Below are positions 4,011-31,506 of a DNA stretch of 35,291 nucleotides, piece after piece. The first letter of the stretch is position 1, and every line of letters starts with the position of its first letter. The notes beneath the pieces were generated by a model. The model was not told the DNA's origin, did not search any database, and was given only the letters and a program-made list of their open reading frames with translations. The translations under genes were made by a program, and so were the position numbers. Source of the stretch: a virus; UHGV virus genome UHGV-0392586, one strand, 5' to 3'.

Positions 4011-4084
4011 CCGGACATAGCTCAGTCGGTTAGAGCAGCAGCCTTATAAGCTGTGTGTCACGGGTTCGATTCCCGTTGTCCGGA
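4011..4084 (+). tRNA. tRNA with anticodon UAU (tRNA-Ile, AUA-decoding), 74 nt
   Basis: Cloverleaf: acceptor CCGGACA/TGTCCGG, D-arm GCTC-AGTCGGTTA-GAGC, anticodon arm GCAGC-CTTATAA-GCTGT, variable GTGTC, T-arm ACGGG-TTCGATT-CCCGT, discriminator A. Confidence 0.8.
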
Positions 4085-4244: not shown

Positions 4245-4712
4245 ATGGCAAAAGGTAAATATCAAGAGTGGCTAGAGCCGGAAGGCTTGCTGAAGATAGA
4301 GGGATGGGCGAGAGATGGTCTGACGGATGAGCAGATTGCAGATAATATCGGAATTTCCAGAAGCACATTAAATAGCTGGAAAGACAAGTATTCGGACATT
4401 TCGGACACCCTAAAAAGAGGAAAAGAGGTCGTTGATCGTCAAGTTGAGAATGCTTTGCTAAAACGTGCGCTTGGATATGAGTACACGGAAACGACCAGAG
4501 AATATATACCGGAACTCGATGAAATGAAAACTACGAAAAAGGTCACAAAGCAAGTAGCACCGGACACGACAGCACAGATATTCTGGCTCAAGAACCGGAA
4601 ACCGGACAAATGGAGAGATAAGCAGGAATATGAAGATAGGACAGCGATTGAGAAGCTGGATGAAATCTTGAAAGGATTGCATGACAATGCAGCTAAGCAA
4701 AAAGCAGAATGA
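4245..4712 (+). CDS. terminase small subunit (HTH-containing TerS)
   Basis: MAKGKYQEWLEPEGLLKIEGWARDGLTDEQIADNIGISRSTLNSWKDKY typical Firmicutes-phage TerS N-terminus; RBS AAAGGTGGTGAG; directly upstream of TerL. Confidence 0.8.
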   Translation: MAKGKYQEWLEPEGLLKIEGWARDGLTDEQIADNIGISRSTLNSWKDKYSDISDTLKRGKEVVDRQVENALLKRALGYEYTETTREYIPELDEMKTTKKVTKQVAPDTTAQIFWLKNRKPDKWRDKQEYEDRTAIEKLDEILKGLHDNAAKQKAE

Positions 4713-6015
4713 GTACATAATGAGCGCAACTCATAGATGGAATATTAAATCTGGCGCGGTACGTTCCGGAAAGTCTTTTGTAGATACTGCTTATATCGTG
4801 CCTAAAAGAATCAGAGAAAGGGCCGGAAAGCCCGGATTGAACGTCATTATGGGAGTCTCAAAAGAGTCCATAGAGCGAAACGTGCTCCAACCGATGAGAG
4901 AAATCTATACCAGTGACCTGATCGGGAACATCAATAACCGGAATGTGGCAAGAGTATGCGGAGAGGATGTCTATTGTCTCGGTGCGGAAAAGGTCAGTCA
5001 AGTCGCAAAGATACAGGGAGCGTCCATCAAGTATTGTTACGGGGATGAGATTGCAAAGTGGAACAAAGAAGTCTTCCAGATGTTAAAGTCCCGTCTTGAT
5101 AAACCGTATTCCTGTTTTGATGGAGCTTGCAACCCAGAGCATCCAACGCATTGGCTCAAAGAATTCATTGACAATGTGGAGCTAGATATATATCTGCAAA
5201 AGTACACCATATTTGATAATCCATTCCTAAATCCTGGATTTGTTGAGGATCTCTGTAAAGAGTACGATGGGACAATCTACTATGACCGTCTCATTCTTGG
5301 ATTATGGAAAAGAGCTGACGGGTCGATCTACAAGCGGTTTGCAGACAATCCGGAAGCGTTCCGGTGCGAAATCGTGGATGTTCTCTCACAGGAATCAGAG
5401 CATAAGCAATTCCGAAAAGAGGATATCACATCAATCGAGATTGGATTGGACTTTGGTGGCAATCAATCCGGTCATTCATTCGTTGCCAGAGGGTATACGG
5501 ATAATTACAGAGATGTAATTGCGCTAAAATCCCGTAGAATTACGGCGAAAGATGAAAAAGAAGACATCGACAGCAATAGGTTGAATGAGTTGTTTTGCGA
5601 ATTTATCAGGGAAGTAATAGAACAATATTCGGTATGCGTGAAGAGCGGAGATTACGTGCAGTATTGCAACGTAGAATCCGTATTCTGGGACAATGCGGAG
5701 ACAGTACTTGGTAATTCCATCCGAAACGCCGTAGAAAAAGAGTTTCCGTGGATCGCTGTCAAACCGGCAAAGAAAAGACCAATCAACGACAGAATCAGAT
5801 GCACCGTCAAGCTCATGGGGGCTGGGCGGTTTTTTATTACAAAAGACTGCGAATCTCTGCAAACTGCTTTTTCGGATGCAGTTTGGGACAAAGAAGCTGT
5901 TGGGAAAGATGAGCGTCTGGACGATGGCAGCACTGATATTGACAGCTTGGATGCGTTCGAATATACAATCGAGCGCGATATGAAATACCTGATTGAAGAG
6001 GTGGAAGATGTTTGA
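4681..6015 (+). CDS. terminase large subunit (start ambiguous: 4681/4687/4720)
   Basis: Walker A-like SGAVRSGKS near N-terminus, ~440 aa, follows TerS, precedes portal. Confidence 0.85.
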   Translation: MTMQLSKKQNEYIMSATHRWNIKSGAVRSGKSFVDTAYIVPKRIRERAGKPGLNVIMGVSKESIERNVLQPMREIYTSDLIGNINNRNVARVCGEDVYCLGAEKVSQVAKIQGASIKYCYGDEIAKWNKEVFQMLKSRLDKPYSCFDGACNPEHPTHWLKEFIDNVELDIYLQKYTIFDNPFLNPGFVEDLCKEYDGTIYYDRLILGLWKRADGSIYKRFADNPEAFRCEIVDVLSQESEHKQFRKEDITSIEIGLDFGGNQSGHSFVARGYTDNYRDVIALKSRRITAKDEKEDIDSNRLNELFCEFIREVIEQYSVCVKSGDYVQYCNVESVFWDNAETVLGNSIRNAVEKEFPWIAVKPAKKRPINDRIRCTVKLMGAGRFFITKDCESLQTAFSDAVWDKEAVGKDERLDDGSTDIDSLDAFEYTIERDMKYLIEEVEDV

Positions 6016-10948: not shown

Positions 10949-11040
10949 GCCTTTTGGTCAGTAGATGAGACCTTAAACAGTCAATTCGTGGCGGTTGGTA
11001 ACACGCCTAAAACTACCTAATGCGAAAGGAGATCGGAAAC

Positions 11041-11589
11041 ATGAAAACAGAATTTTTAAAAGGACTCGGATTGGAACAGGATGCTATTGATAAGATCATG
11101 GCAGAGAACGGGAAAGACATTGCCGCTGAAAAGGCAAAGACAACCAAAGCAGAGGGTGAGCGTGACAATTACAAGAGTCAGCTTGAGACTGCAACGGAAT
11201 CTCTGGAAAAGTTTAAAGATGTTGACCCAACAGCTATGCAGGGCGAAATTGATAAGCTGAATCAACAGCTGAAAGACAAGGATGCTGAGTATGCCGCCAA
11301 AGAAGCGGATCGCATCTTTTCCGACACGATCAAAGAAGCTATCAAGACAGCCGGAGGACGCAATGAAAAAGCGGTCATGGCTATGCTTGATATTGACGCT
11401 TTGAAAGAATCAAAAAACCAGTCTGAGGACATCAAGAAAGCATTGGAAACCGTAAAGGAATCTGATGCTTATTTATTTGGCTCTGATGAGCCTTTTAAGA
11501 ACCCAGTAGGAGCAACTGGCGGCTCTGGCACAGGTGGAGATAATTTCTCGGCGATCAGAGCAGCTATGGGGCTTCCGGCAGAAAAATAA
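11041..11589 (+). CDS. phage scaffolding protein
   Basis: Helical, charged, coiled-coil-like sequence immediately upstream of major capsid gene; RBS AAAGGAG. Confidence 0.7.
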   Translation: MKTEFLKGLGLEQDAIDKIMAENGKDIAAEKAKTTKAEGERDNYKSQLETATESLEKFKDVDPTAMQGEIDKLNQQLKDKDAEYAAKEADRIFSDTIKEAIKTAGGRNEKAVMAMLDIDALKESKNQSEDIKKALETVKESDAYLFGSDEPFKNPVGATGGSGTGGDNFSAIRAAMGLPAEK

Positions 11590-19496: not shown

Positions 19497-21997
19497 TGGA
19501 CAGTATTAGAATTGCAATTTTAAGTGCAAATAACACGCCTATAGCATTTATGGATAATGCACACAAAAAGTCTATGCACTACTGGGATGATGATCTGCAT
19601 GAGTATTTGCAGGGAGCGGCGAATACCTATACTTTTACGGTAAATGCAAAGCATCCAGACGCAGAACATGTTACAGTCGGAAACAAGGTGGCATTTACTT
19701 ACAAGGGTAAATCTTACTACTTAAATATTGTAAATACCGATCAGACGGAGAAGACAATTACTGCTACGGCATGGTCTCTGTCGTTTGAGCTTATTAACGA
19801 GGATGCTGGCGAATACAAAGCTGGAAAAGCCATGAGCTTTGAAGAGTACCTTGCCGTGTTTGACGCTGAGAGAACGCTTAAATTGGGACTCAATGAGGTG
19901 TCGGACAAACGGATTACCAACGAATGGACTGGCACAACGACCGTGTTAAAGAGATTATTTTCTCTGGCCAATGTTTTTTCTGCGGAGATCGAATTTGAGA
20001 CAGTACTGAACAGAGACTACTCTTTAAAAGAGATTGTCCTAAATGTATATCGGAAACACTCCGATACAGACAGCGGAGTCGGAGAATACCGGAATGACAT
20101 TGTACTGCGGTACGGGAAAGGAATTACCGGAATTCGAAAAACCACAGATGCCGAGAAGCTTTACACCTGCATCCAGCCGACCGGAAAGGACGGTCTGACA
20201 ATCAATGGTCTTGACAAGAAAGAATACGATGAAAACGGCAATATCGAGTACTTTACAGACGGTGCGATCATCCGCGCACCACAGGCAAGGGACCGGTTCC
20301 CATCCAACATCGTAAATAAGGCTGATGCTTATATCCTGATGCGTAAAGAGTACGATACAGACAGCAAGGACAAGCTCTATAGCATGGCATTATCTGACCT
20401 CAAGACCGCATCCGAGCCAGTAGTAACCTACGAGGTGGACGGATATTTTGACACCAACATCGGGGATACGGTAAGGATGCAGGATCAGGAGTGGACACCA
20501 GTCCTTTATCTACAGGCAAGAGTATCAGAACAGATCAGGAGTCTTACCAATCCAAAAACTGCAAAGACGGTATTTACAAACTACAAAGAGCTTACATCCG
20601 AAATATCCGACGATCTCATCAAAAGGATGCAGGACTTGATTTCAAAAAATAAAGTCTACACCTGTTCCATCTCTACAAACAACGGCATTATCTTTAAAAA
20701 CGGCATCGGCAGCACTACACTGACTGCCTACGCTTACAACAACGGTGTGGATGTGTCTGGAAATCTGGAAATCCGGTGGAGTAAAGATGGGACAGAGTTT
20801 TATGTAGGTAGGAGCGTGACAGTAAATGCAGAGGATGTGGATACCAAGGCGGTGTACTCTTTCGTGGCAACTGAAAATGGAATCCGGCGTGGATATTATG
20901 AGGTAACAATCACCAAGGTGGACGATGGAGCACCGGGAGATCCTGGAAAAAACGGGGATGACGGAAAGGACGGTGTAGGAATCGAGAGTGTGACCAAGTA
21001 TTATCTGGCATCCGAAAAAAGCACGGGAATCACGGTATCCTCTCCGGGATGGACGGACACGAAGCAAGACATGACCGAAACCAAGAAAAACCTATGGAGC
21101 TACGACCTTATCCGGTACACCAATAGCACGGAAACCAAGACCACACCTGTGATTATCGGTGTACGTGGAGACAACGGAGAGACAGGGGATAGTGGAATTA
21201 TCATATCTCCCACACCCCCGGAAAATCCAAAAGTTGGACAGCTCTGGCAGACAGCAAGTGGAGAGCCGATTAAAAGATGGGATGGAAGTAAATGGGCGAT
21301 CTATTACATTTCTGTAGAAAATCTGAATGTAGAGACGCTAAGTGCGATTGCCGCAAACCTCGGAACTGTAACCGCTGGACTTATAAAGAGTCTGGACGGA
21401 CACTTTTTTATCCAAGTAAATACCGGAGAGATCTACTCCGAAGATGAAAACGGGATAAACAGCTCTGCGATAAGCAAGGGCGTATTTGTAGCGAATGGGA
21501 TGGACAGCGGCAGACACACAAGCTTGTCTATATTCCCAACGCAGATTGCGCAGTATTTTGACGGAGCCACCATTTCAAACCTTGTTAATTTTAAACGGGA
21601 CGGTATATTTGTTAAAAACTCCGGATCATACGAAATGAACATATCTAAAGCAACAAATTATGACTCCGGAAAGATAAAAGGACCATTCGCCAGCACAAAC
21701 CCATCCAACTATATACAGGCGGAGCTAAAAAGGAGAGGGTGCGTGGTTACATGTAAAATCACGGCACTTATACAATTTCCAAACACAGGATCGCACGGAC
21801 CGTTCGACGAATTAAAGATCCCTGTAGGATATCGACCAGTCGTAGACATAGTAGAGACGTACAGCGAATTGGTTGGTACGTCAATTATCGGGACTGGCAG
21901 GTATTACATTACAAAAGACGGAGGAATATCCATTGTAACTGGCAAGACAGACTACTGTGAGCGCATAAAGACATTTACATGGATTACGGATGACTAA
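19496..21997 (+). CDS. tail-associated lysin / Tal (prophage tail endopeptidase N-terminal domain) with collagen-like GXY repeat and C-terminal receptor-binding region
   Basis: N-terminal region typical of siphovirus Tal; GAPGDPGKNGDDGKDGVG collagen-like repeat at ~20920-20980; TAATG overlap with Dit. Confidence 0.8.
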   Translation: MDSIRIAILSANNTPIAFMDNAHKKSMHYWDDDLHEYLQGAANTYTFTVNAKHPDAEHVTVGNKVAFTYKGKSYYLNIVNTDQTEKTITATAWSLSFELINEDAGEYKAGKAMSFEEYLAVFDAERTLKLGLNEVSDKRITNEWTGTTTVLKRLFSLANVFSAEIEFETVLNRDYSLKEIVLNVYRKHSDTDSGVGEYRNDIVLRYGKGITGIRKTTDAEKLYTCIQPTGKDGLTINGLDKKEYDENGNIEYFTDGAIIRAPQARDRFPSNIVNKADAYILMRKEYDTDSKDKLYSMALSDLKTASEPVVTYEVDGYFDTNIGDTVRMQDQEWTPVLYLQARVSEQIRSLTNPKTAKTVFTNYKELTSEISDDLIKRMQDLISKNKVYTCSISTNNGIIFKNGIGSTTLTAYAYNNGVDVSGNLEIRWSKDGTEFYVGRSVTVNAEDVDTKAVYSFVATENGIRRGYYEVTITKVDDGAPGDPGKNGDDGKDGVGIESVTKYYLASEKSTGITVSSPGWTDTKQDMTETKKNLWSYDLIRYTNSTETKTTPVIIGVRGDNGETGDSGIIISPTPPENPKVGQLWQTASGEPIKRWDGSKWAIYYISVENLNVETLSAIAANLGTVTAGLIKSLDGHFFIQVNTGEIYSEDENGINSSAISKGVFVANGMDSGRHTSLSIFPTQIAQYFDGATISNLVNFKRDGIFVKNSGSYEMNISKATNYDSGKIKGPFASTNPSNYIQAELKRRGCVVTCKITALIQFPNTGSHGPFDELKIPVGYRPVVDIVETYSELVGTSIIGTGRYYITKDGGISIVTGKTDYCERIKTFTWITDD

Positions 21998-22661: not shown

Positions 22662-23461
22662 AAATTGGCTTAAGGGGAGGGCATTCCCCAAATTGTAAAG
22701 GTGCAATCGGTCTGATCGATGAGCAGGCAGAAGTACGGAAGATCTACAATGAGCTTGTACCAATGCTACAGGCAGTCGGTCATACTGTGGTTGATTGTAA
22801 TTCCAATGCATCCAATGTGTCCAGCGAGTTATCTGACGGAACAAATAAGGCGAATAGTGCGGGGTGCGATATCTATGTCACCTTGCACATGAATGCGGCA
22901 GGAGCGGCGTCAGCGGGTGGCACAGAGGTGTGGTTATACGATGCATCTAACCAGACCATGAATACGATCGCAAGTAACATCTGCAAGAATTTTGAAGAAA
23001 AAGGATTTGTTAACCGCGGTGTTAAATATAGTTCCGGCTATCATGACCTGAATGCATCTAATATGCCCGGTATGATCGTGGAGACATTATTTTGTACCGG
23101 AACAGACGATGTGGCCAGATACCGGAGCTTAGGAGCAAGAGGAGTTGCAGAACTGATCGCAAAGGCGATCGACAGCAAAGCATCAACAGGAAGTGGACAT
23201 GGAAACAAACAGAATACAGAAGATCAGAAAGGAGAAGAGACTATGCAGTGTATGTTTACAGTAGAGGGAAAAGGATGTGTATATTGGTATCATGACGATA
23301 AGATTACGGCTTTGGGACATCCGGACGAGATGAAGATCCTGATGGATATTTACAAAGCGAACAATGGAAGAGATATGCCGTCTTATCATTGGACAAAAAA
23401 AGCGCCGTGGCACGCAAGATTGCTTGCGGTTCTGAACAGAAAACCATCTACATCTATCTAA
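22658..23461 (+). CDS. N-acetylmuramoyl-L-alanine amidase (Amidase_3 family endolysin) with C-terminal extra domain
   Basis: MKIGLRGGHSPN...DIYVTLHMNAAG...GTEVW...MPGMIVETLFCTGTDD typical Amidase_3 catalytic residues. Confidence 0.85.
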   Translation: MKIGLRGGHSPNCKGAIGLIDEQAEVRKIYNELVPMLQAVGHTVVDCNSNASNVSSELSDGTNKANSAGCDIYVTLHMNAAGAASAGGTEVWLYDASNQTMNTIASNICKNFEEKGFVNRGVKYSSGYHDLNASNMPGMIVETLFCTGTDDVARYRSLGARGVAELIAKAIDSKASTGSGHGNKQNTEDQKGEETMQCMFTVEGKGCVYWYHDDKITALGHPDEMKILMDIYKANNGRDMPSYHWTKKAPWHARLLAVLNRKPSTSI

Positions 23462-23467
23462 TAAAAT

Positions 23468-23494
23468 CCCCTCGGAGAGCTGATCTCTGAGGGG
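23468..23494. terminator. GC-rich hairpin CCCCTCGGAG-agctgat-CTCTGAGGGG between convergent amidase (+) and integrase (-); U-run on minus-strand side (ATTTTATT)
   Basis: 10-bp stem with one G.T; serves as terminator for the minus-strand int transcript and possibly the lysis operon. Confidence 0.55.
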
Positions 23495-23559
23495 TGAATA
23501 TTGTACCATTTTTACTTCTTTATAATAGGTAGAAAAATAATTGTACGCTCTTGAGAAAA

Positions 23560-23600
23560 GGTTGACCTTTTTGCAACAACCGACAAAAGTCCAACAAACC
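23560..23600. other. candidate attP core for the serine integrase: GGTTGACCTTTTTGCAACAACCGACAAAAGTCCAACAAACC, imperfect dyad
   Basis: Imperfect inverted repeats (GGTTG...CAACC; GACCTTTTTG...CAAAAGTC) immediately downstream of int stop, typical location for serine-integrase attP. Confidence 0.35.
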
Positions 23601-23616
23601 CAGCAAAATCAAGGGT

Positions 23617-25092
23617 TTACGGCATGTGGTAGTAGTATACTTTAAGTTCGTCTTCTTCTCGATCATAGACAATTTTCTCCACAACGCTTCTAAGCACCTC
23701 ATTCTTGGTCGTCGCATCTACGGAATCGGATGAGAGAATATCGTACACATTTTTTACTCTCATCAACATATCATTGTCCTCATTTTTGGTGCTTATTTTC
23801 TCTTCTTTAAGCTCAGACAGTTGTTTTTCTAGACCGTCTTTCTCTCCCTGCACAATCCGTTTATTTTCCTTGTATTCTTCCATAGTATCAATTCCATTCA
23901 TGTATGCCTCTTTGATTCTCTGCAATTTCACATCGATTTTCTTGATCTGATCTTCCAGTATGGTTTTCAAATCCGCAGTATCTTCCGTTTTAACCTCAAT
24001 CTTCCGGTAGGTTATTTTTCCGGTATCCAATACAGACTTAATGGATTCCAATACCGCAGGTTCCAGCTTTAGAGAGCTTATGGAGTTCTTCGCTGCACAT
24101 TTTCCCTTGGAGTATCCGTAACAGCGAAAATAGCAGTATGTCTGCTTATTGTTTTCAATCTTGCAGGCAGTCATCGTCCTTCCACACGCTGGGCATTTAA
24201 CGATCCCAGATAGCCAGTGCTTGTACGTGCTTGCCGGTCTCGCTCCACGTGGGCGGTATTCTCTCTTGTATCGCTCCTGTGCCTTATCAAACAATTCCTT
24301 ACTAATGATTGCAGGTTGTTCTCCCTCAGCGATAATCCACTCGCTTTCTGGCCGGATCTCTTTCGATTCATTAATCGTCCGATTCCACCGCACCATCCCG
24401 CAGTAAGTGGGGTTCTGTAGGATATATTCTATAGACCTTCGTTCAAATTCTTTTCCATGTGATGTTTTAAAGTTATGGCTATTCAAGAGCCGTGCGATCT
24501 CAAACAATCCCATGCCGTCATGCACATACTTTTCAAAAATCAGCTTCACGATTTCAGCCTCTTCCGGTACGATCACTGGCGGTTCTTTATGTGATACAAT
24601 CTTGTACCCAAGTGGTGGGCGTGCTTGGTATCCACCTCGTTCCGCTTTTTCTCTCATTCCTCTTGTTACTTCTCCGGATAGACGGACAGAGTAATATTCA
24701 TCCATCCACTCAATAATTCGTTCGATCAGAGAGCCGAATGGACCATCTACCAGTGGTTCAGAGATGCTTATTACGTCCACGTTATGCTTTTTCTTGAGCA
24801 AGGACTTGTATACAATACTTTCCTCTTGGTTTCGTGCAAATCGGCTGAATTTCCATACCAGTATGGCATCTGCCGGATGATCGGATGATTTCGCAAGACC
24901 GATCATTTTTTGAAACTCTGGGCGTTTGTCTGCTTTTCTTCCGGATATTCCGAGTTCAAAAAAGATTTTCGATACTACATATCCGTGACTTTTCGCGTAA
25001 TCTTTCAATAGCTTCGCTTGAGAATCCGGGGATAATTCATCCTGTTTTCCTGTGGATACACGTACATATCCAAAGGCATATTTTGTTTCCAT
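23617..25092 (-). CDS. int: large serine recombinase (phage serine integrase)
   Basis: N-terminal resolvase catalytic motif YVRVSTGKQ, recombinase domain, zinc-ribbon CPACG...C..C, C-terminal coiled coil; 491 aa. Confidence 0.9.
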   Translation of the reverse strand: METKYAFGYVRVSTGKQDELSPDSQAKLLKDYAKSHGYVVSKIFFELGISGRKADKRPEFQKMIGLAKSSDHPADAILVWKFSRFARNQEESIVYKSLLKKKHNVDVISISEPLVDGPFGSLIERIIEWMDEYYSVRLSGEVTRGMREKAERGGYQARPPLGYKIVSHKEPPVIVPEEAEIVKLIFEKYVHDGMGLFEIARLLNSHNFKTSHGKEFERRSIEYILQNPTYCGMVRWNRTINESKEIRPESEWIIAEGEQPAIISKELFDKAQERYKREYRPRGARPASTYKHWLSGIVKCPACGRTMTACKIENNKQTYCYFRCYGYSKGKCAAKNSISSLKLEPAVLESIKSVLDTGKITYRKIEVKTEDTADLKTILEDQIKKIDVKLQRIKEAYMNGIDTMEEYKENKRIVQGEKDGLEKQLSELKEEKISTKNEDNDMLMRVKNVYDILSSDSVDATTKNEVLRSVVEKIVYDREEDELKVYYYHMP

Positions 25093-25167
25093 GCTATCAT
25101 CTCCTTATTTAATTTTATGCAAAAATGAGTATAAAAATAACAGCCAACGTGCGAACTGATGTTCCAC

Positions 25168-25196
25168 TTGCATGACTGCTCCGAAGATGATACAAT
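25168..25196 (+). promoter_or_regulatory. strong sigma70-type promoter TTGCAT-17-TACAAT on + strand, antisense to lysogeny operon
   Basis: Near-consensus hexamers with 17-bp spacer. Confidence 0.55.
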
Positions 25197-25202
25197 ATTC
25201 TT

Positions 25203-25274
25203 GGATTTCAATCGCATATCTTCGGATATGTATTGCCGTCCCGGTGTTGGTAGCACTGGGGCGGTTTTTATTTT
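25203..25274 (+). ncRNA. candidate ~70-nt cis-antisense sRNA: UUCG-tetraloop hairpin (CATATC-ttcg-GATATG) + terminator CCGTCCCGGTG-N7-CACTGGGGCGG + TTTTTATTTT
   Basis: Promoter, two hairpins and T-run all on + strand in the bPH-int intergenic space; no + strand ORF. Confidence 0.45.
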
Positions 25275-25647
25275 ATAAAACGTGTGACGCTATAAGTCTG
25301 TTTATAGATTGCACATCTGAGTTCGAGGTGAAATCAAATTTCACTGTTCCTAATCCACTAAAACAAACAGTGAGTTCAGAGTCCATATCGAAAGTACCAG
25401 AAGTTTCAACCGAAAACGCTTGCATTTTTGAATATGGCAACGATGTATAATCTTTTTTAGATCCTGTAATACCTTGCACGTTGCATGCAATAATTCTTTT
25501 GTTTGTAAAAACAACGAAGTCTCTCATCGAAGAGTAATACCCGGCCACTTCTTCATCAGTTATAAGCAAGCTGAAAACTTCTCTCGGAATGTTCTTTTCT
25601 TTTCCTTTGCTTAATTTGAATACTTTTTTGTTCTGAAAATCAATCAA
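25273..25647 (-). CDS. bacterial PH-domain (bPH/YokE-like) protein
   Basis: 124 aa; VVFTNKRIIAC...SLPYSKM pattern of bPH domains; in lysogeny-module moron position. Confidence 0.55.
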   Translation of the reverse strand: MIDFQNKKVFKLSKGKEKNIPREVFSLLITDEEVAGYYSSMRDFVVFTNKRIIACNVQGITGSKKDYTSLPYSKMQAFSVETSGTFDMDSELTVCFSGLGTVKFDFTSNSDVQSINRLIASHVL

Positions 25648-25677
25648 TGTATGTTCCTTCTTTCTTAATTCAATGCT

Positions 25678-26142
25678 TTATTTTTTGGTTAACTCGACCT
25701 TTTTTGTAGTTCCCATAGCGGACGCTTCATAACTAATCACACCGTCTTTGTATGTAAATTCTTTTGTATCGTCACTTGATGCTAGTAACGCCATCCCTGT
25801 TTTTTCTTTATCGTTTTCCGATGTCCATGCGTAATCGTTAGTTGGCTCGGTTGGCGCAACGTAAGTGCCAGCCCAGTAAAGTGATTTTGTATTTCCTCCA
25901 TCAGACACCCAATTTATTTCTATTACATCATCAGAAATCGTAGCTTCTTGATATGACCCTTCGACTTCTTCTGATTTCCATGTTCCAGTTAAATTCAAAG
26001 GCTCTTTCTTCTCTTCTTTCTGGTCTGTTGTTTCTTCTGTCTTTGTTTCGGTGTCTTTGGATGGTTCGGCATCCCCACCACATGCTGTAATTGATAATGC
26101 CATAATTCCCGCTAATAGCATTGCTACAATTTTCTTTTTCAT
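25678..26142 (-). CDS. lipoprotein (signal peptide + lipobox LSITAC); candidate superinfection-exclusion protein
   Basis: MKKKIVAMLLAGIMALSITAC lipoprotein signal; located between repressor region and integrase as for Ltp-type Sie lipoproteins. Confidence 0.6.
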   Translation of the reverse strand: MKKKIVAMLLAGIMALSITACGGDAEPSKDTETKTEETTDQKEEKKEPLNLTGTWKSEEVEGSYQEATISDDVIEINWVSDGGNTKSLYWAGTYVAPTEPTNDYAWTSENDKEKTGMALLASSDDTKEFTYKDGVISYEASAMGTTKKVELTKK

Positions 26143-26270
26143 AGTTTCCTCACTTTCTTATGTACCTTAACACCACTTTACTCTATATAAACGCCGAAGC
26201 GGTTATATCGTATTATTACCATTATTTACCTGTAGTTTCCAGATCTGGAATATACTACAATAAAACCACT

Positions 26271-26468
26271 ATGAAAATACTACTCGATAAGATCATGCTT
26301 AAGAAAAATCTATCAGTCCGGCAAGTATCCATTGCGACCGGAATATCAAAATCAACGATTAACCGTATTGCAAACGGTGAAATATCACCGACAGCCGACA
26401 CGCTGGAATTGCTTGCCAAGGGCTTAAAAGTCCGAATTTCTGACCTTATCGACTCTCCATATCAATAA
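26271..26468 (+). CDS. XRE-family HTH transcriptional regulator (65 aa), possibly leaderless
   Basis: LSVRQVSIATGISKSTINRIANGE HTH; no SD before ATG 26271; TATACT -10 ~15 nt upstream. Confidence 0.6.
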   Translation: MKILLDKIMLKKNLSVRQVSIATGISKSTINRIANGEISPTADTLELLAKGLKVRISDLIDSPYQ

Positions 26469-26572
26469 GTGTCCCAGATATGGGACGATTGTCCATTTTC
26501 GCGTAAGTTTCCCGATTTTAGATTGTTAACTTAATAGAGAGGTACATAAGTACCAAAAAATAACAGAACAAA

Positions 26573-26637
26573 TGTTCGAACAAAATATTGATTTTTATCC
26601 ACTGAAATAGTATTATATGTTCAGGGATTTCGAACAT
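26573..26637 (+). promoter_or_regulatory. promoter TTGATT-17-TATTAT flanked by ATGTTC-type operators (ATGTTCGAACA at 26572-26582; ATGTTC-N9-GAACAT at 26617-26637); additional palindrome GGTAC-ataa-GTACC at 26541-26554
   Basis: Read directly from sequence. Confidence 0.5.
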
Positions 26638-26665
26638 GTGTTTTTGCAGTTAGGGGGATTGCGAA

Positions 26666-26764
26666 ATGGACTACAAAAAACTTATCATCGAATTGGTCAA
26701 CAAGTCCAACAATATTGAGGTGTTGGAACTTGTGTACCGATTCTGCATAAAGCTTTTAGGCTAG
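26666..26764 (+). CDS. small ORF (32 aa; MDYKKLIIELVNKSNNIEVLELVYRFCIKLLG) downstream of operator-controlled promoter
   Basis: RBS GGGGGA 7 nt upstream; stop inside terminator stem. Confidence 0.35.
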   Translation: MDYKKLIIELVNKSNNIEVLELVYRFCIKLLG

Positions 26765-26784
26765 GGGAAACCCTAGTCTTTTTT
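26761..26784 (+). terminator. rho-independent terminator CTAGGG-gaaa-CCCTAG + TCTTTTTT; overlaps stop codons of both the small + ORF and the convergent CI-like gene
   Basis: Perfect 6-bp stem with GAAA tetraloop and T-run. Confidence 0.7.
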
Positions 26785-27156
26785 AATTAAGCTCTCTGCG
26801 AGCTTTTCTAGGACATCCCATTCACTTTCATCCAGCTTTGCAAGAGCTTCTACTAATCTTTTTTTAAATGTATCATTTTCCATTATAAGATCAGCAGCAA
26901 AGTCTGTAATCAACTGGTCTCTTGTTAATTGGATAAACATTTCACCGTTTCCGGTTCTTAACCATTCTTCGTTCACATTGAACTCTTTACAAATCAACTT
27001 ATATAAGGATTCTTTTTGATCTGGGCGTTTCAAGCGATCGTATTCTATATTAACAATAACGCTTTCACTGACGCCAAGCCTTTCTCCAAAAACTCTCCTG
27101 GACATACTTAAGTCTTTTCTTAAGATTTCAATTCTTTCTCCTATATTTAATTCCAA
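26773..27156 (-). CDS. CI-like phage repressor (XRE HTH N-terminal domain + C-terminal domain)
   Basis: HTH ILRKDLSMSRRVFGERLGVSESVIVNIE; divergent from early promoter; own promoter TTGACT-17-TATACT overlapping operator O1; RBS AAGGAGG. Confidence 0.75.
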   Translation of the reverse strand: MELNIGERIEILRKDLSMSRRVFGERLGVSESVIVNIEYDRLKRPDQKESLYKLICKEFNVNEEWLRTGNGEMFIQLTRDQLITDFAADLIMENDTFKKRLVEALAKLDESEWDVLEKLAESLIKKD

Positions 27157-27196
27157 AAGGCTTCCTCCTTTCTGAAATCAGTATATCATTATTATA

Positions 27197-27285
27197 CTTG
27201 TTAGTCAACAAGAAAAATATTTAATTTTTTTAAAAATCTTATTGACAAACAAAATAAAACGAGTTATGATTTGTTCATCAACAAG
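27197..27285. promoter_or_regulatory. genetic switch: O1 CTTGTTagtcAACAAG (27197-27212), early promoter TTGACA-17-TATGAT (27242-27270, + strand), O2 TTTGTTcatcAACAAG (27270-27285); repressor promoter on - strand overlaps O1
   Basis: Two 16-bp palindromes with identical half-sites TTGTT; consensus -35/-10 hexamers. Confidence 0.7.
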
Positions 27286-27362
27286 AAAGCAACAACACAA
27301 ACCAAAACAAAAAAACGCTGACCTATCGGCATGACGGGGAAAAAGAAAGCGAGGTGAGAAAG

Positions 27363-27785
27363 ATGTGGGTTTCAAGACGATCATGGGATTGCTTGCTGTA
27401 TCGCATCAAAAAGTGTGAAGATGACATCAAAATTCAGAAGGAAAATACGGAGAATTTAATCAGGAATACTGCAAAAAAAATTCTTGAACAACCAGAAGAG
27501 TTGCGCGAAGAAATTCAGGGGGTTGAACGTATCGAAAAATATATCGATGAGTTTATAGGTCTTGACGAAGAAAATAAGGATAGAAAGATAAAAAAATTCG
27601 ATGTATTGAAATCCATTACTAGAGAGAAAGAGTTTTCTAATATGGTATTTGGCTTGATCGAAGTCAAAAAAACTCCTGAAGCATTTGCAGAACTTCTTGA
27701 AGAGGAGATGCCTGAAAAAGAGCTACCTCATTTAAAAGAAGCAGCTCTTAATGGTTATCCGTTGTTTTTCTCTGGCATGCAGTGA
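27363..27785 (+). CDS. hypothetical early protein (140 aa)
   Basis: RBS GAGGTG, first gene of rightward early operon. Confidence 0.55.
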   Translation: MWVSRRSWDCLLYRIKKCEDDIKIQKENTENLIRNTAKKILEQPEELREEIQGVERIEKYIDEFIGLDEENKDRKIKKFDVLKSITREKEFSNMVFGLIEVKKTPEAFAELLEEEMPEKELPHLKEAALNGYPLFFSGMQ

Positions 27786-27982
27786 GCGCATCCGTTTCTT
27801 CTGATGTCAAGCATGGAAGAAAAAACAACAGCTTCCTCATAGGAACTGCAATTAAAGATATGTTCGGACTTTATATCATTTATGCGGCAGCACGAGGTTT
27901 CGCGGTCTAAATCATGGATTTCACCAGTGTTTTTATTAAGCACATAGCGATTGCCGTTAAATGGCGAATTACAACGTCTCAT
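27755..27982 (-). CDS. Cys-rich small protein (75 aa from internal ATG with AAGGAG RBS; ORF-track start 28012), oppositely oriented inside early operon
   Basis: Minus-strand RBS GAAAGGAGCGATTTT-ATG; Cys motifs SCC...C...CAHC; 31-bp convergent overlap with upstream + gene. Confidence 0.45.
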   Translation of the reverse strand: MRRCNSPFNGNRYVLNKNTGEIHDLDRETSCCRINDIKSEHIFNCSSYEEAVVFSSMLDIRRNGCAHCMPEKNNG

Positions 27983-28108
27983 AAAATCGCTCCTTTCGTA
28001 ATACTCAGGCATGGCAGTGCCCTGTATTTACAGTATAGGAGATAAACGAAAAGAAAGCAATCCCGCCACGGAGGTTACGACGGCAATAAAAATAGGAGGT
28101 AAAAGGTA

Positions 28109-30967: not shown

Positions 30968-31506
30968 TGAAATTCACAGGAAAATTAAAAGGCCGTTTGA
31001 TAGATTGCCACACCATCCTATTCAAATCCGAAGAGGACTTCCGACAAGCCTATGATGAGTTGAAAGATTATGAGAAATTAACGCTTGAAATAAAGCCATA
31101 CAGAGCAAAGAGAAGCCTTGACGCAAACTCTTACTTGTGGGTGTTACTCGATAAATTAGCGGAAAAGTTGGACATCACTAGGTGGCAAGCGTACCTAAAT
31201 GAATTAAAATCCCACGGTGCTTTTGAGTACATACCGCTCCGGGAAAAAGACATCTATCTGGCACAGTCAGTGTTCCGGATTGTGATAGATCGTGGAGCAC
31301 AGGAAGTAAAAGACCTAAAAGGGAGAACTGAAACATTACACACTCTGCAATGCTACAAAGGGTCAAGCAAGTATAACACAAAAGAAATGAGCAGACTCAT
31401 CAAAGGCGTGTTGGAAGATTGCAGAGAGGTTGGAATACCAGATGCAGACCTTTTGACCCCAGATGAAAAAGAAGAGCTTAGACAAAAATGGGGGATTGAA
31501 CTGTGA
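30964..31506 (+). CDS. ninB: NinB/Orf family recombination protein
   Basis: KPYRAKRSLDANSYLWVLLDKLAEKLD matches lambda NinB core RSLDQNRKLWACLGDVS. Confidence 0.7.
   Translation: MMKFTGKLKGRLIDCHTILFKSEEDFRQAYDELKDYEKLTLEIKPYRAKRSLDANSYLWVLLDKLAEKLDITRWQAYLNELKSHGAFEYIPLREKDIYLAQSVFRIVIDRGAQEVKDLKGRTETLHTLQCYKGSSKYNTKEMSRLIKGVLEDCREVGIPDADLLTPDEKEELRQKWGIEL

Follow-up and report, generated by a model that had tools for sequence, protein, structure and literature searches.

The window analysed here is a stretch of 35,291 nucleotides (nt) from the virus genome UHGV-0392586 and represents a temperate siphovirus-like phage of about 35 kb, akin to phages of Ruminococcus (Mediterraneibacter) gnavus. 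R. gnavus has been linked to inflammatory bowel disease. The holin and amidase endolysin genes of this phage are on the plus strand, with their last base at 23461. They are followed by the integrase gene (int), which is on the minus strand and encodes a large serine recombinase, and then by a minus-strand gene with a bPH_1 domain. Between these last two genes, a first-pass annotation made from the sequence alone had placed a discrete small RNA (sRNA) on the plus strand, antisense to RNA running into int and likely to regulate that gene. The conservation of the element as a unit, the covariation in its hairpin and its linkage to the 5' side of int all support this proposal. As judged from the sequence, a plus-strand sRNA gene of about 70 nt is very probably real. 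It appears to be the antisense arm of a portable int-control cassette of about 190 bp (about 25090-25276), in which int may be of the serine or of the tyrosine type. This is the best explanation of the whole offered by the sequence comparisons and folding predictions, and it is held with evenly balanced confidence. The sRNA is half of this larger cassette; a minus-strand hairpin, named T(-), and an anti-Shine-Dalgarno (anti-SD) box were missing from the first-pass annotation.

Transcription of the sRNA was expected to start from a near-consensus promoter, with the hexamers TTGCAT and TACAAT separated by 17 bp. Both hexamers are in place (Table 1), and the -10 element is additionally extended by a TG. 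However, the -35 element cannot be called near-consensus, as it agrees with the consensus in TTG only (3/6), and for this reason the promoter was missed by a consensus scan. The TTG lies exactly 17 bp from the -10 element in 71 of 74 unique contexts, including those with a wholly different T(-) sequence. The extended -10 element TGATACAAT is invariant in the canonical class of cassettes; a second class, V2, has either TGATATAAT or TGATACAAT. At the sequence level the RNA has what is expected of a countertranscript, namely a promoter of its own opposite the target strand (TTG-17-TGaTACAAT) and a defined 3' end, since a G+C-rich hairpin followed by a T-run ends the sRNA in every member of the family. 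In the window this intrinsic terminator, T(+), ranks first among the 10 terminator-like sites detected in 23000-28000, where 3.6 would be expected by chance. Its stem had been recognised before, but the run of ten T reported to follow it is interrupted, and reads TTTTTATTTTAT. Relatives differ in the T(+) stem by indels and by replacement of U-G with C-G and of A-U with G-U, and its pairing is kept.

The 72-nt RNA folds with an energy of -31 kcal/mol (z = -5.85), and none of 200 shuffled sequences folds as well. Hairpin 1, CATATC-UUCG-GATATG, is present as first described, and its pairing extends to GCATATC/GATATGT (25214-25231) and then to CAAT/ATTG (25209-25235). Among 64 unique sequences the loop is UUCG in 52, UCCG in five and UACG in three, which makes 60 of the extra-stable UNCG type, and UUCA in four, with a C-G closing pair. 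The stem changes in a compensatory manner, as is seen in GCATATC/GATATGT, GTATCTC/GAGATAC, GTACATC/GATGTAC and GTACGTCC/GGCCGTAC. When 51 distinct sequences were compared, paired cells made up 86.3% (69.1% in shuffles), double-sided changes numbered 65 (21.8 in shuffles) and the covariation score was 0.509 (0.203 in shuffles); none of 500 shuffles scored as high, and slid controls reached at most 0.178. The wobble pairs in the sRNA helices suit the plus strand. Some family members carry one or two additional hairpins. At loci L054, L074 and L109, about 70 extra nt with added hairpins lie between promoter and terminator and give predicted sRNAs of about 130-140 nt, so the transcribed part tolerates large insertions.

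Two further claims had been made about this RNA. It was said to lie in a stretch with no plus-strand open reading frame (ORF). This does not hold, as mechanical ORFs of 39 amino acids (aa) (25159-25278) and 92 aa (25172-25450) run across the site. Neither of them is conserved: the 39-aa frame has a stop codon inside it in phage phiRgPS_6 and has lost its ATG in phage phiRg519T2, and no Shine-Dalgarno (SD) sequence precedes it. The RNA was also said to be complementary to the 3' end of the bPH gene and to the int leader. The complementarity to a segment of the leader stands, but the ribosome-binding site (RBS) of int is left uncovered and the bPH coding sequence is overlapped at its stop codon only.

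Table 1. Positions of the genes and cassette elements in the window.
Feature	Position	Strand	Remarks
int, large serine recombinase, 491 aa	23617..25092	-	Pfam Resolvase, Recombinase, Zn_ribbon_recom; cassette attached to int
Region 1, int translation initiation region (TIR), RNA AAGGAGAUGAUAGCAUG	25090..25107	-	near-copy of the plus-strand box
U-rich tract after T(-), UUAUUUUUAUAC	25129..25142	-	same bases hold the extended -10-like TGTTATTTT (25134-25142)
T(-) hairpin	25139..25180	-	overlaps the sRNA -35 element; ~35 nt upstream of the int start codon
-35 element TTGCAT	25168..25173	+	inside the T(-) stem
Invariant 20-mer CCGAAGATGATACAATATTC	25181..25200	both	apparent roles: in plus-strand DNA, promoter spacer, extended -10 and discriminator; in minus-strand RNA, anti-SD box
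Extended -10 element TGATACAAT	25188..25196	+	TACAAT at 25191-25196 after a 17-bp spacer
Predicted sRNA, ~70 nt	25203..25274	+	start placed by the -10 position
Hairpin 1, C(UUCG)G tetraloop	25209..25235 (core 25214-25231)	+	CATATC-TTCG-GATATG at 25215-25230
Region 3, anti-anti-SD, UCCGAAGAUAUGCGAU	complement of hairpin 1 (25209..25235)	-	
T(+), intrinsic terminator	25235..25276	+	stem 25235-25265, 14 pairs (8 G-C), then TTTTTATTTTAT
bPH_1-domain gene	25273..25647	-	Pfam bPH_1, E = 1e-40; variable right neighbour, outside the conserved cassette

The stop codon of the bPH gene (25273-25275) sits in the T-run of T(+). Further to the right follow a 154-aa ORF on the minus strand and then helix-turn-helix regulators and an antirepressor, and promoter-like sites for the bPH operon, that is, for the minus-strand genes upstream of int, are found near 26212-26277. 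Beyond the 3' end of int, 155 bp (23462-23616) separate its stop codon from that of the endolysin gene, and it is here that the phage attachment site (attP) is expected, by analogy with phiRgPS_6.

Distribution and linkage to integrase genes

A megablast search against phage records barely matched the flanking genes (7-10% of a 2.7-kb query). The intergenic stretch was found in three GenBank Ruminococcus phages, phiRgPS_6, phiRg519T2 and RG-TP1. In phiRgPS_6 and phiRg519T2 the adjoining integrase is not a serine recombinase but a tyrosine recombinase of 384 aa. About 145 bp can be aligned among phages whose left neighbours (the int families) and right neighbours are unrelated, and to the right of the terminator the phages cannot be aligned with one another. 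Exact copies of a hairpin 20-mer are present in 42 IMG/VR contigs, and the promoter 20-mer CCGAAGATGATACAATATTC is present in at least 120 such contigs and in 46 species genomes. The latter are almost all Lachnospiraceae, and include many Mediterraneibacter species as well as Blautia, Dorea, Faecalimonas, Muricomes and Agathobacter.

More than 200 cassette loci were collected from the IMG/VR phage contigs together with these species genomes. The divergent ORF on the left is an integrase in every locus that could be oriented, and likewise in the 46 species genomes. The first 118 viral loci comprise 63 with a large serine recombinase and 55 with a tyrosine integrase. These integrases fall into at least 11 clusters with less than 50% identity between them, representatives of which were confirmed with Pfam. 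The same linkage is seen from the side of the integrase: upstream of 80 homologues of int (61-100% identity), a recognisable variant of the cassette, as judged by eye, was found in every unique region except one (L217).

Cassettes of the V2 class, in which int is about 62% identical, can be regarded as an independent replicate. All three of the mutually complementary regions described below differ from those of the canonical class and yet follow the same logic. In V2 the start site is GGAAGGUGAUACAAUG, the box contains TGATATAAT or TGATACAAT and has another spacer, T(-) is short and the hairpin loop is CCUUGG. Here, GUGAUACAAU in the start site pairs with AUUGUAUCAC in the box; compared with canonical cassettes, A-U has become G-C. 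Locus L256 is another example: its box is GGAGATGATAC, its hairpin loop UCCG and its start site GGAGAUGAUAC, and all three regions are still mutually complementary.

About 15 other Lachnospiraceae loci (e.g., L141, L158, L160, L165, L172, L180 and L182-L185), together with L161 at 4620-4880, contain a second RNA of about 110 nt after the sRNA hairpin. It has a consensus plus-strand promoter (TTGACT-17-TATAAT) and its own terminator, and is convergent with a minus-strand ORF for a hydrophobic peptide of 27 aa (MTTYEEFMVILTVSTLIVAILNYRK). Rfam gave a weak BsrG-like match to this RNA (E = 0.003, below threshold). The second RNA and the 27-aa ORF are probably a type I toxin-antitoxin pair, which is absent from the window.

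The minus-strand hairpin and three complementary regions

Read 5' to 3' on the minus strand, the leader of int contains region 3, region 2 (the box), T(-) with its U-tract and region 1, which holds the SD sequence and AUG of int. T(-), present in nearly all members, is a hairpin followed by a U-rich sequence and is thus built like an intrinsic terminator. Its folding energies in the window are -16.2 (z = -3.0) for the minus strand and -9.9 (z = -1.5) for the plus strand. The mean minimum free energy (MFE) over 65 unique variants is -17.1 for the minus strand, compared with -12.0 for the plus strand and -6.6 for shuffled sequences. Of 96 unique variants (77 distinct inner sequences), 79 fold better as minus-strand RNA, and all 96 together contain 174 G.U pairs when read as minus-strand RNA against 54 when read as plus-strand RNA. 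The sequence that follows T(-) on the minus strand is UUAUUUUU(A/G)UAC, with eight U in the 10 nt after the stem in most members, and the median distance from the end of T(-) to the int start codon is 37 nt. The inner sequence of T(-) has been wholly replaced in some genomes, and the hairpin and the U-run persist. Entirely different, shorter hairpins without the GAAC-N4-GTTC core are also found in this position, which points to an RNA structure and away from a protein operator. RNAalifold, applied to a MAFFT alignment of the upstream half, an alignment that is not structure-aware, gave no consensus structure on either strand; per-sequence folding and ungapped counting of stems were used in its place. 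From its sequence, T(-) looks like a terminator or insulator that shields int from upstream transcription.

The 20-mer that forms the sRNA promoter on the plus strand reads GAAUAUUGUAUCAUCUUCGG on the minus strand, and this is the box. It is complementary to region 3, with which it forms a helix, H2, and also to region 1. In the window, H2 consists of 16 bp with one bulge. Folding of 105 unique members predicts that region 3 is the partner of the box as long as the leader is free (P = 0.86), which leaves the RBS open. If the part complementary to the sRNA is blocked in the calculation, the int start site becomes the partner of the box instead (P = 0.91). For V2 the corresponding values are P = 0.92 for box and start site with the sRNA region blocked, and P = 0.50 for the upstream pairing in the free leader. 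T(-) is predicted to form in both states of the leader.

Both pairings are preferred energetically. The duplex of regions 3 and 2 has a mean of -15.9, as compared with -7.7 when region 3 is shuffled and -10.7 when only the CCGAAG core is kept. For the duplex between the box and the TIR, the median over 41 unique int start sites is -12.9, as compared with -7.4 for 680 other SD-bearing start sites from the same loci (Mann-Whitney p = 5e-22). When the two strands were compared, minus-strand RNA gave the stronger version of this duplex in 110 of 113 cases. A pairing of the CCGAAG in the spacer with the CUUCGG of the loop in plus-strand RNA was considered and dropped, as the promoter is untranscribed on that strand and the pairing is better on the minus strand, within H2. 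The tail of about 10 nt at the 5' end of the sRNA (25203-25212) is single-stranded and complementary to the apical loop of H2. Among family members the first 10-25 nt of the sRNA vary freely; this variability maps to the apical loop of H2, where the sequence is unconstrained.

These pairings suggest a three-way switch between region 3, the box and the int RBS, to which we give slightly less than an even chance on the strength of the predicted structures. Minus-strand RNA that arrives from upstream genes (the bPH operon here) would meet T(-) and be stopped or thinned there, by which int would be insulated. In the molecules that read through, and as long as the sRNA is absent, region 3 would hold the box in H2; the anti-SD would thus be occupied, the int RBS free and int translatable. 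Docking of a constitutive sRNA on the apical loop of H2, by way of its free 5' tail, would be followed by invasion of region 3, and the released box would then pair with the SD and AUG of int and block translation. T(+) would end the sRNA and also halt plus-strand read-through that would otherwise run antisense across int. The net effect would be that int is off unless minus-strand transcription outruns the sRNA, and the cassette, as far as sequence and modelled pairing can indicate, probably serves to switch integrase production off. That the strands are transcribed, where transcription starts, and which way and how strongly Int is affected are what we infer from this arrangement. More tentatively still, the element may be a mobile cassette that is swapped as a unit between serine and tyrosine integrases, with the 20-mer acting in DNA as the sRNA promoter and in RNA as the anti-SD relay, with two outward terminators as flanks, and with Int production timed before the sRNA accumulates.

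Several observations weigh against this switch. The first concerns the transcription of int. The motif TG-T-TATTTT is present in 159 contexts, with the int start codon following at a median distance of 37 nt. Besides, or instead of, being part of a U-tract, the TGTTATTTT at the base of T(-), which hardly varies, could serve int as an extended -10 promoter. An int mRNA that starts there contains no box, so that the pairing of box and TIR must act in trans. In that case, the box would be supplied by transcripts that ended at T(-), and competition between the divergent promoters (48 bp apart) would be a further or alternative mechanism. A convincing minus-strand promoter that could drive the leader was sought within the cassette and none was found, as the sole conserved candidate, TGTTATTTT, is downstream of the box. 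If T(-) is efficient, moreover, it stops transcripts before the int SD, and a switch in cis then needs read-through. An antiterminator that competes with T(-) was sought without success; H2 abuts T(-) and shares no bases with it. In the window there is an alternative MFE fold in which the 3' arm of T(-) and the U-run (GCUGUUAUUUUU) pair with the int SD region via G.U pairs.

The pairings also have features that are less easily reconciled with the switch. Since the box resembles the anti-SD of 16S rRNA, some pairing with any strong SD sequence is expected, and 3.4% of the other start sites attain the box:TIR median of int, which means that strong pairing is enriched at int but not exclusive to it. 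The strand bias of the pairing between regions 3 and 2 is weak, with the minus strand the stronger in 73 of 118 cases, and UUCG loops are poor kissing partners. Locus L217 has kept T(-) and the int start site and lacks the box and the sRNA, and L154 and L169 have kept the promoter, the sRNA and the downstream RNA, with unrelated sequence in place of T(-) and int; parts of the cassette can therefore exist apart. Finally, the family members are related, and the counts given here do not represent independent events. Apart from the switch, a pairing of the 3' arm of T(-) with the start site, as modelled for the minus strand of 25087-25236, may offer a second route to occlusion of the RBS.

Alternative explanations

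The alternative that survives best, although we regard it as unlikely, is that the locus is a module for insulation and promoter competition in which no RNA-RNA regulation takes place and the short RNA is a by-product. T(-) would keep prophage or moron transcription out of int, and T(+) would keep late or antisense transcription out of the lysogeny genes. The plus-strand promoter would compete or collide with a divergent int promoter (TGTTATTTT, the two -10 elements being 48 bp apart) or with incoming minus-strand polymerases. Such a module would fit the two terminator-like hairpins that face outward from a central promoter and the nearly invariant extended -10-like motif at the foot of T(-). 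A terminator scan detected no further plus-strand terminator between the lysis genes and T(+), and in IS200 (PMC4513863) and Tn916 (PMC11658703) the recombination genes are insulated by terminators. What insulation leaves unexplained is the covariation of hairpin 1 with its UNCG loops, the invariance over 20 nt of a spacer and discriminator, the complementarity of the start sites of unrelated int families to the 20-mer with a wobble bias towards the minus strand, and the coherent change of all three regions in V2. A barrier to read-through, which the first-pass annotation had offered as the other role of the element, remains valid as an additional role for both terminators.

It is less probable again that the RNA is a trans-acting phage sRNA with its chief targets among other phage or host mRNAs, for which the position next to int is merely a convenient module boundary. 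A free 5' tail and a terminator are typical of base-pairing sRNAs, and the loci L154 and L169, where promoter and sRNA occur without T(-) or int, would be readily understood. A scan of the window for trans targets gave, as its best non-self match, a partial complementarity of the 5' half of the sRNA to 31391-31440 on the plus strand (duplex -29 kcal/mol, cofold gain about -15). However, among about 7000 windows this match falls in the top 0.1%, roughly as a chance match would. The 5' tail, the usual seed of such sRNAs, is the least conserved part of this one, and the sRNA is linked to int with hardly an exception, in at least 11 integrase families.

A third possibility is that the repeats are DNA operators, i.e., that three related sequences and the GAAC-N4-GTTC palindrome bind a regulator of the divergent promoters. 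Three copies of the motif GAAGATGATA are indeed present in alternating orientation, one each at the start of int, within the promoter and within the hairpin, and the palindromic core is common between the two -10 elements. The core is nevertheless dispensable, as the hairpins at L142, L145, L151 and L155 are quite different, the arms covary instead of being conserved, the spacing of the copies varies, and the neighbouring regulators and integrases differ among the phages. The mismatches between the repeats give G.U pairs on one strand (174 against 54 in T(-); the pairing of regions 2 and 1 favoured on the minus strand in 110 of 113), unlike what a duplex-DNA site would show. Because of the hairpins without a core and the strand-specific wobble bias, a protein operator at the left palindrome was dropped, and the operator explanation as a whole appears very improbable.

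The notion that the element is attP or another recombination site, or that it encodes a small protein, is hardly credible and was rejected: it does adjoin int, contains inverted repeats and is spanned by the 39-aa plus-strand ORF, but that ORF is broken in relatives and has no SD, the element is common to serine and tyrosine integrases and intact in prophage contigs and genomes, IMG/VR contigs of the prophage type end just past the int stop codon, and in phiRgPS_6 the element (~20,984-21,125) is on the 5' side of int, opposite the attP that was mapped experimentally to 19,654-19,674, in the stretch that separates the 3' end of int from the endolysin gene (PMC10072058). A type I antitoxin was likewise considered for the sRNA of the window and rejected, as no convergent small hydrophobic ORF lies opposite it.

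Novelty and relation to known systems

To our knowledge, the post-transcriptional control of integrases is poorly described outside the sib retroregulation of lambda, and the regulation of lysogeny has hardly been worked out for the temperate phages that abound in gut Lachnospiraceae. A search of the whole window against Rfam 15 at gathering thresholds returned only a tRNA and a GP20-b motif, both elsewhere. The tRNA gene is at 4011-4084 on the plus strand (74 bits). The GP20-b motif (RF03003, 43.9 bits, above the gathering score) is at 10956-11019, also on the plus strand, upstream of the ORF 11020-11589 in the structural-gene region. When 24900-25500 was scanned permissively, the only matches were chance ones below threshold (Spot_42, 18 bits against 80; L10_leader, 17 against 44), and on a related locus Rfam found nothing save the weak BsrG-like match of the neighbouring element. 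In the literature that was searched, the cassette sequence appears in no paper, and the papers on R. gnavus phages do not mention the element. Fremin and Bhatt describe HMP2_7457, an expressed 67-bp Firmicutes motif near integrases (PMC8040213), which may be the same RNA as the cassette sRNA.

If the proposal is correct, a cassette that accompanies integrases of two unrelated superfamilies would offer a general, testable handle on the timing of prophage integration and excision, and would add an RNA family that is not in Rfam 15. The combination of a promoter, an antisense RNA and an RBS relay would be a compact natural part for the control of serine integrases in engineered Firmicutes. It would also be a case in which one DNA sequence is constrained both as a promoter and as an RNA regulator, which would explain its extreme conservation.

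The closest architecture is that of IS200, where a recombinase gene is guarded by three layers within about 150 bp. There, tnpA is protected by a rho-independent terminator at the left end, by a stem-loop in the 5' untranslated region that sequesters the SD, and by the 90-nt cis-antisense RNA art200 (PMC4513863). T(-), the pairing of box and TIR, and the plus-strand sRNA would be the counterparts of these three layers, those of the cassette being predictions from sequence and folding. There are also differences. By covering the SD and the first codons, art200 directly prevents binding of the 30S subunit, whereas the sRNA described here ends about 110 nt short of the int SD (SD and AUG at 25090-25106) and would act by freeing an anti-SD. 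In the cassette a terminator lies between anti-SD and SD, and the anti-SD doubles as the core promoter of the sRNA. The controlled gene is a phage integrase of the serine or tyrosine type and not an HUH transposase, the hosts are Lachnospiraceae and not Enterobacteriaceae, and there is no sequence similarity between the two.

A second group comprises the countertranscripts of plasmids. In pT181 (RNAI/II), pIP501 (RNAIII), ColIb-P9 (Inc RNA) and R1 (CopA), a small constitutive antisense RNA encoded in the leader of rep binds that leader while it is being made and selects between two leader structures. The pairing begins between a single-stranded segment and a loop, and antisense binding in pT181 and pIP501 results in a terminator, whose formation competes with that of a pre-emptor helix. 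The cassette would resemble them in that an antisense RNA encoded within the leader of the controlled gene shuts that downstream gene off. It is unlike pT181 and pIP501 in that no helix competing with T(-) was found, so that attenuation of the pT181 type is unsupported; the predicted output is occlusion of the RBS, and the gene encodes an integrase rather than a replication initiator.

RNA-OUT of IS10/Tn10 is a further relative in principle. It is transcribed from an opposing promoter, keeps translation of the transposase low in a dose-dependent manner, and base-pairs from an initial contact of a 5' end with a hairpin loop. The cassette would share with it an antisense RNA from a promoter that opposes that of the recombinase gene. 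Unlike the sRNA of the cassette, RNA-OUT covers the start codon and RBS of RNA-IN, and the promoters of IS10 are convergent and overlapping, with no intervening terminator and no anti-SD relay.

Among phages, OOP of lambda (77 nt), sar of P22, c4 of P1 and P7, and the CI RNA of P4 are short constitutive RNAs with their own promoter and terminator that are antisense to lysogeny-control transcripts. OOP acts on the 3' end of cII, sar and c4 act on ant, and the CI RNA of P4 leads to premature termination. We know of none among them that is attached to int, and the post-transcriptional control of lambda int acts from the 3' side (sib). The sRNA of the window is like OOP in its size and autonomy but not in its target, and it has no sequence or structural homology to these phage RNAs; Rfam gave no match. 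Taken together, antisense and structural control of a recombinase gene is a kind of regulation that is already known; the form of it proposed here would be new, and the cassette is widespread in the phages of gut Lachnospiraceae.

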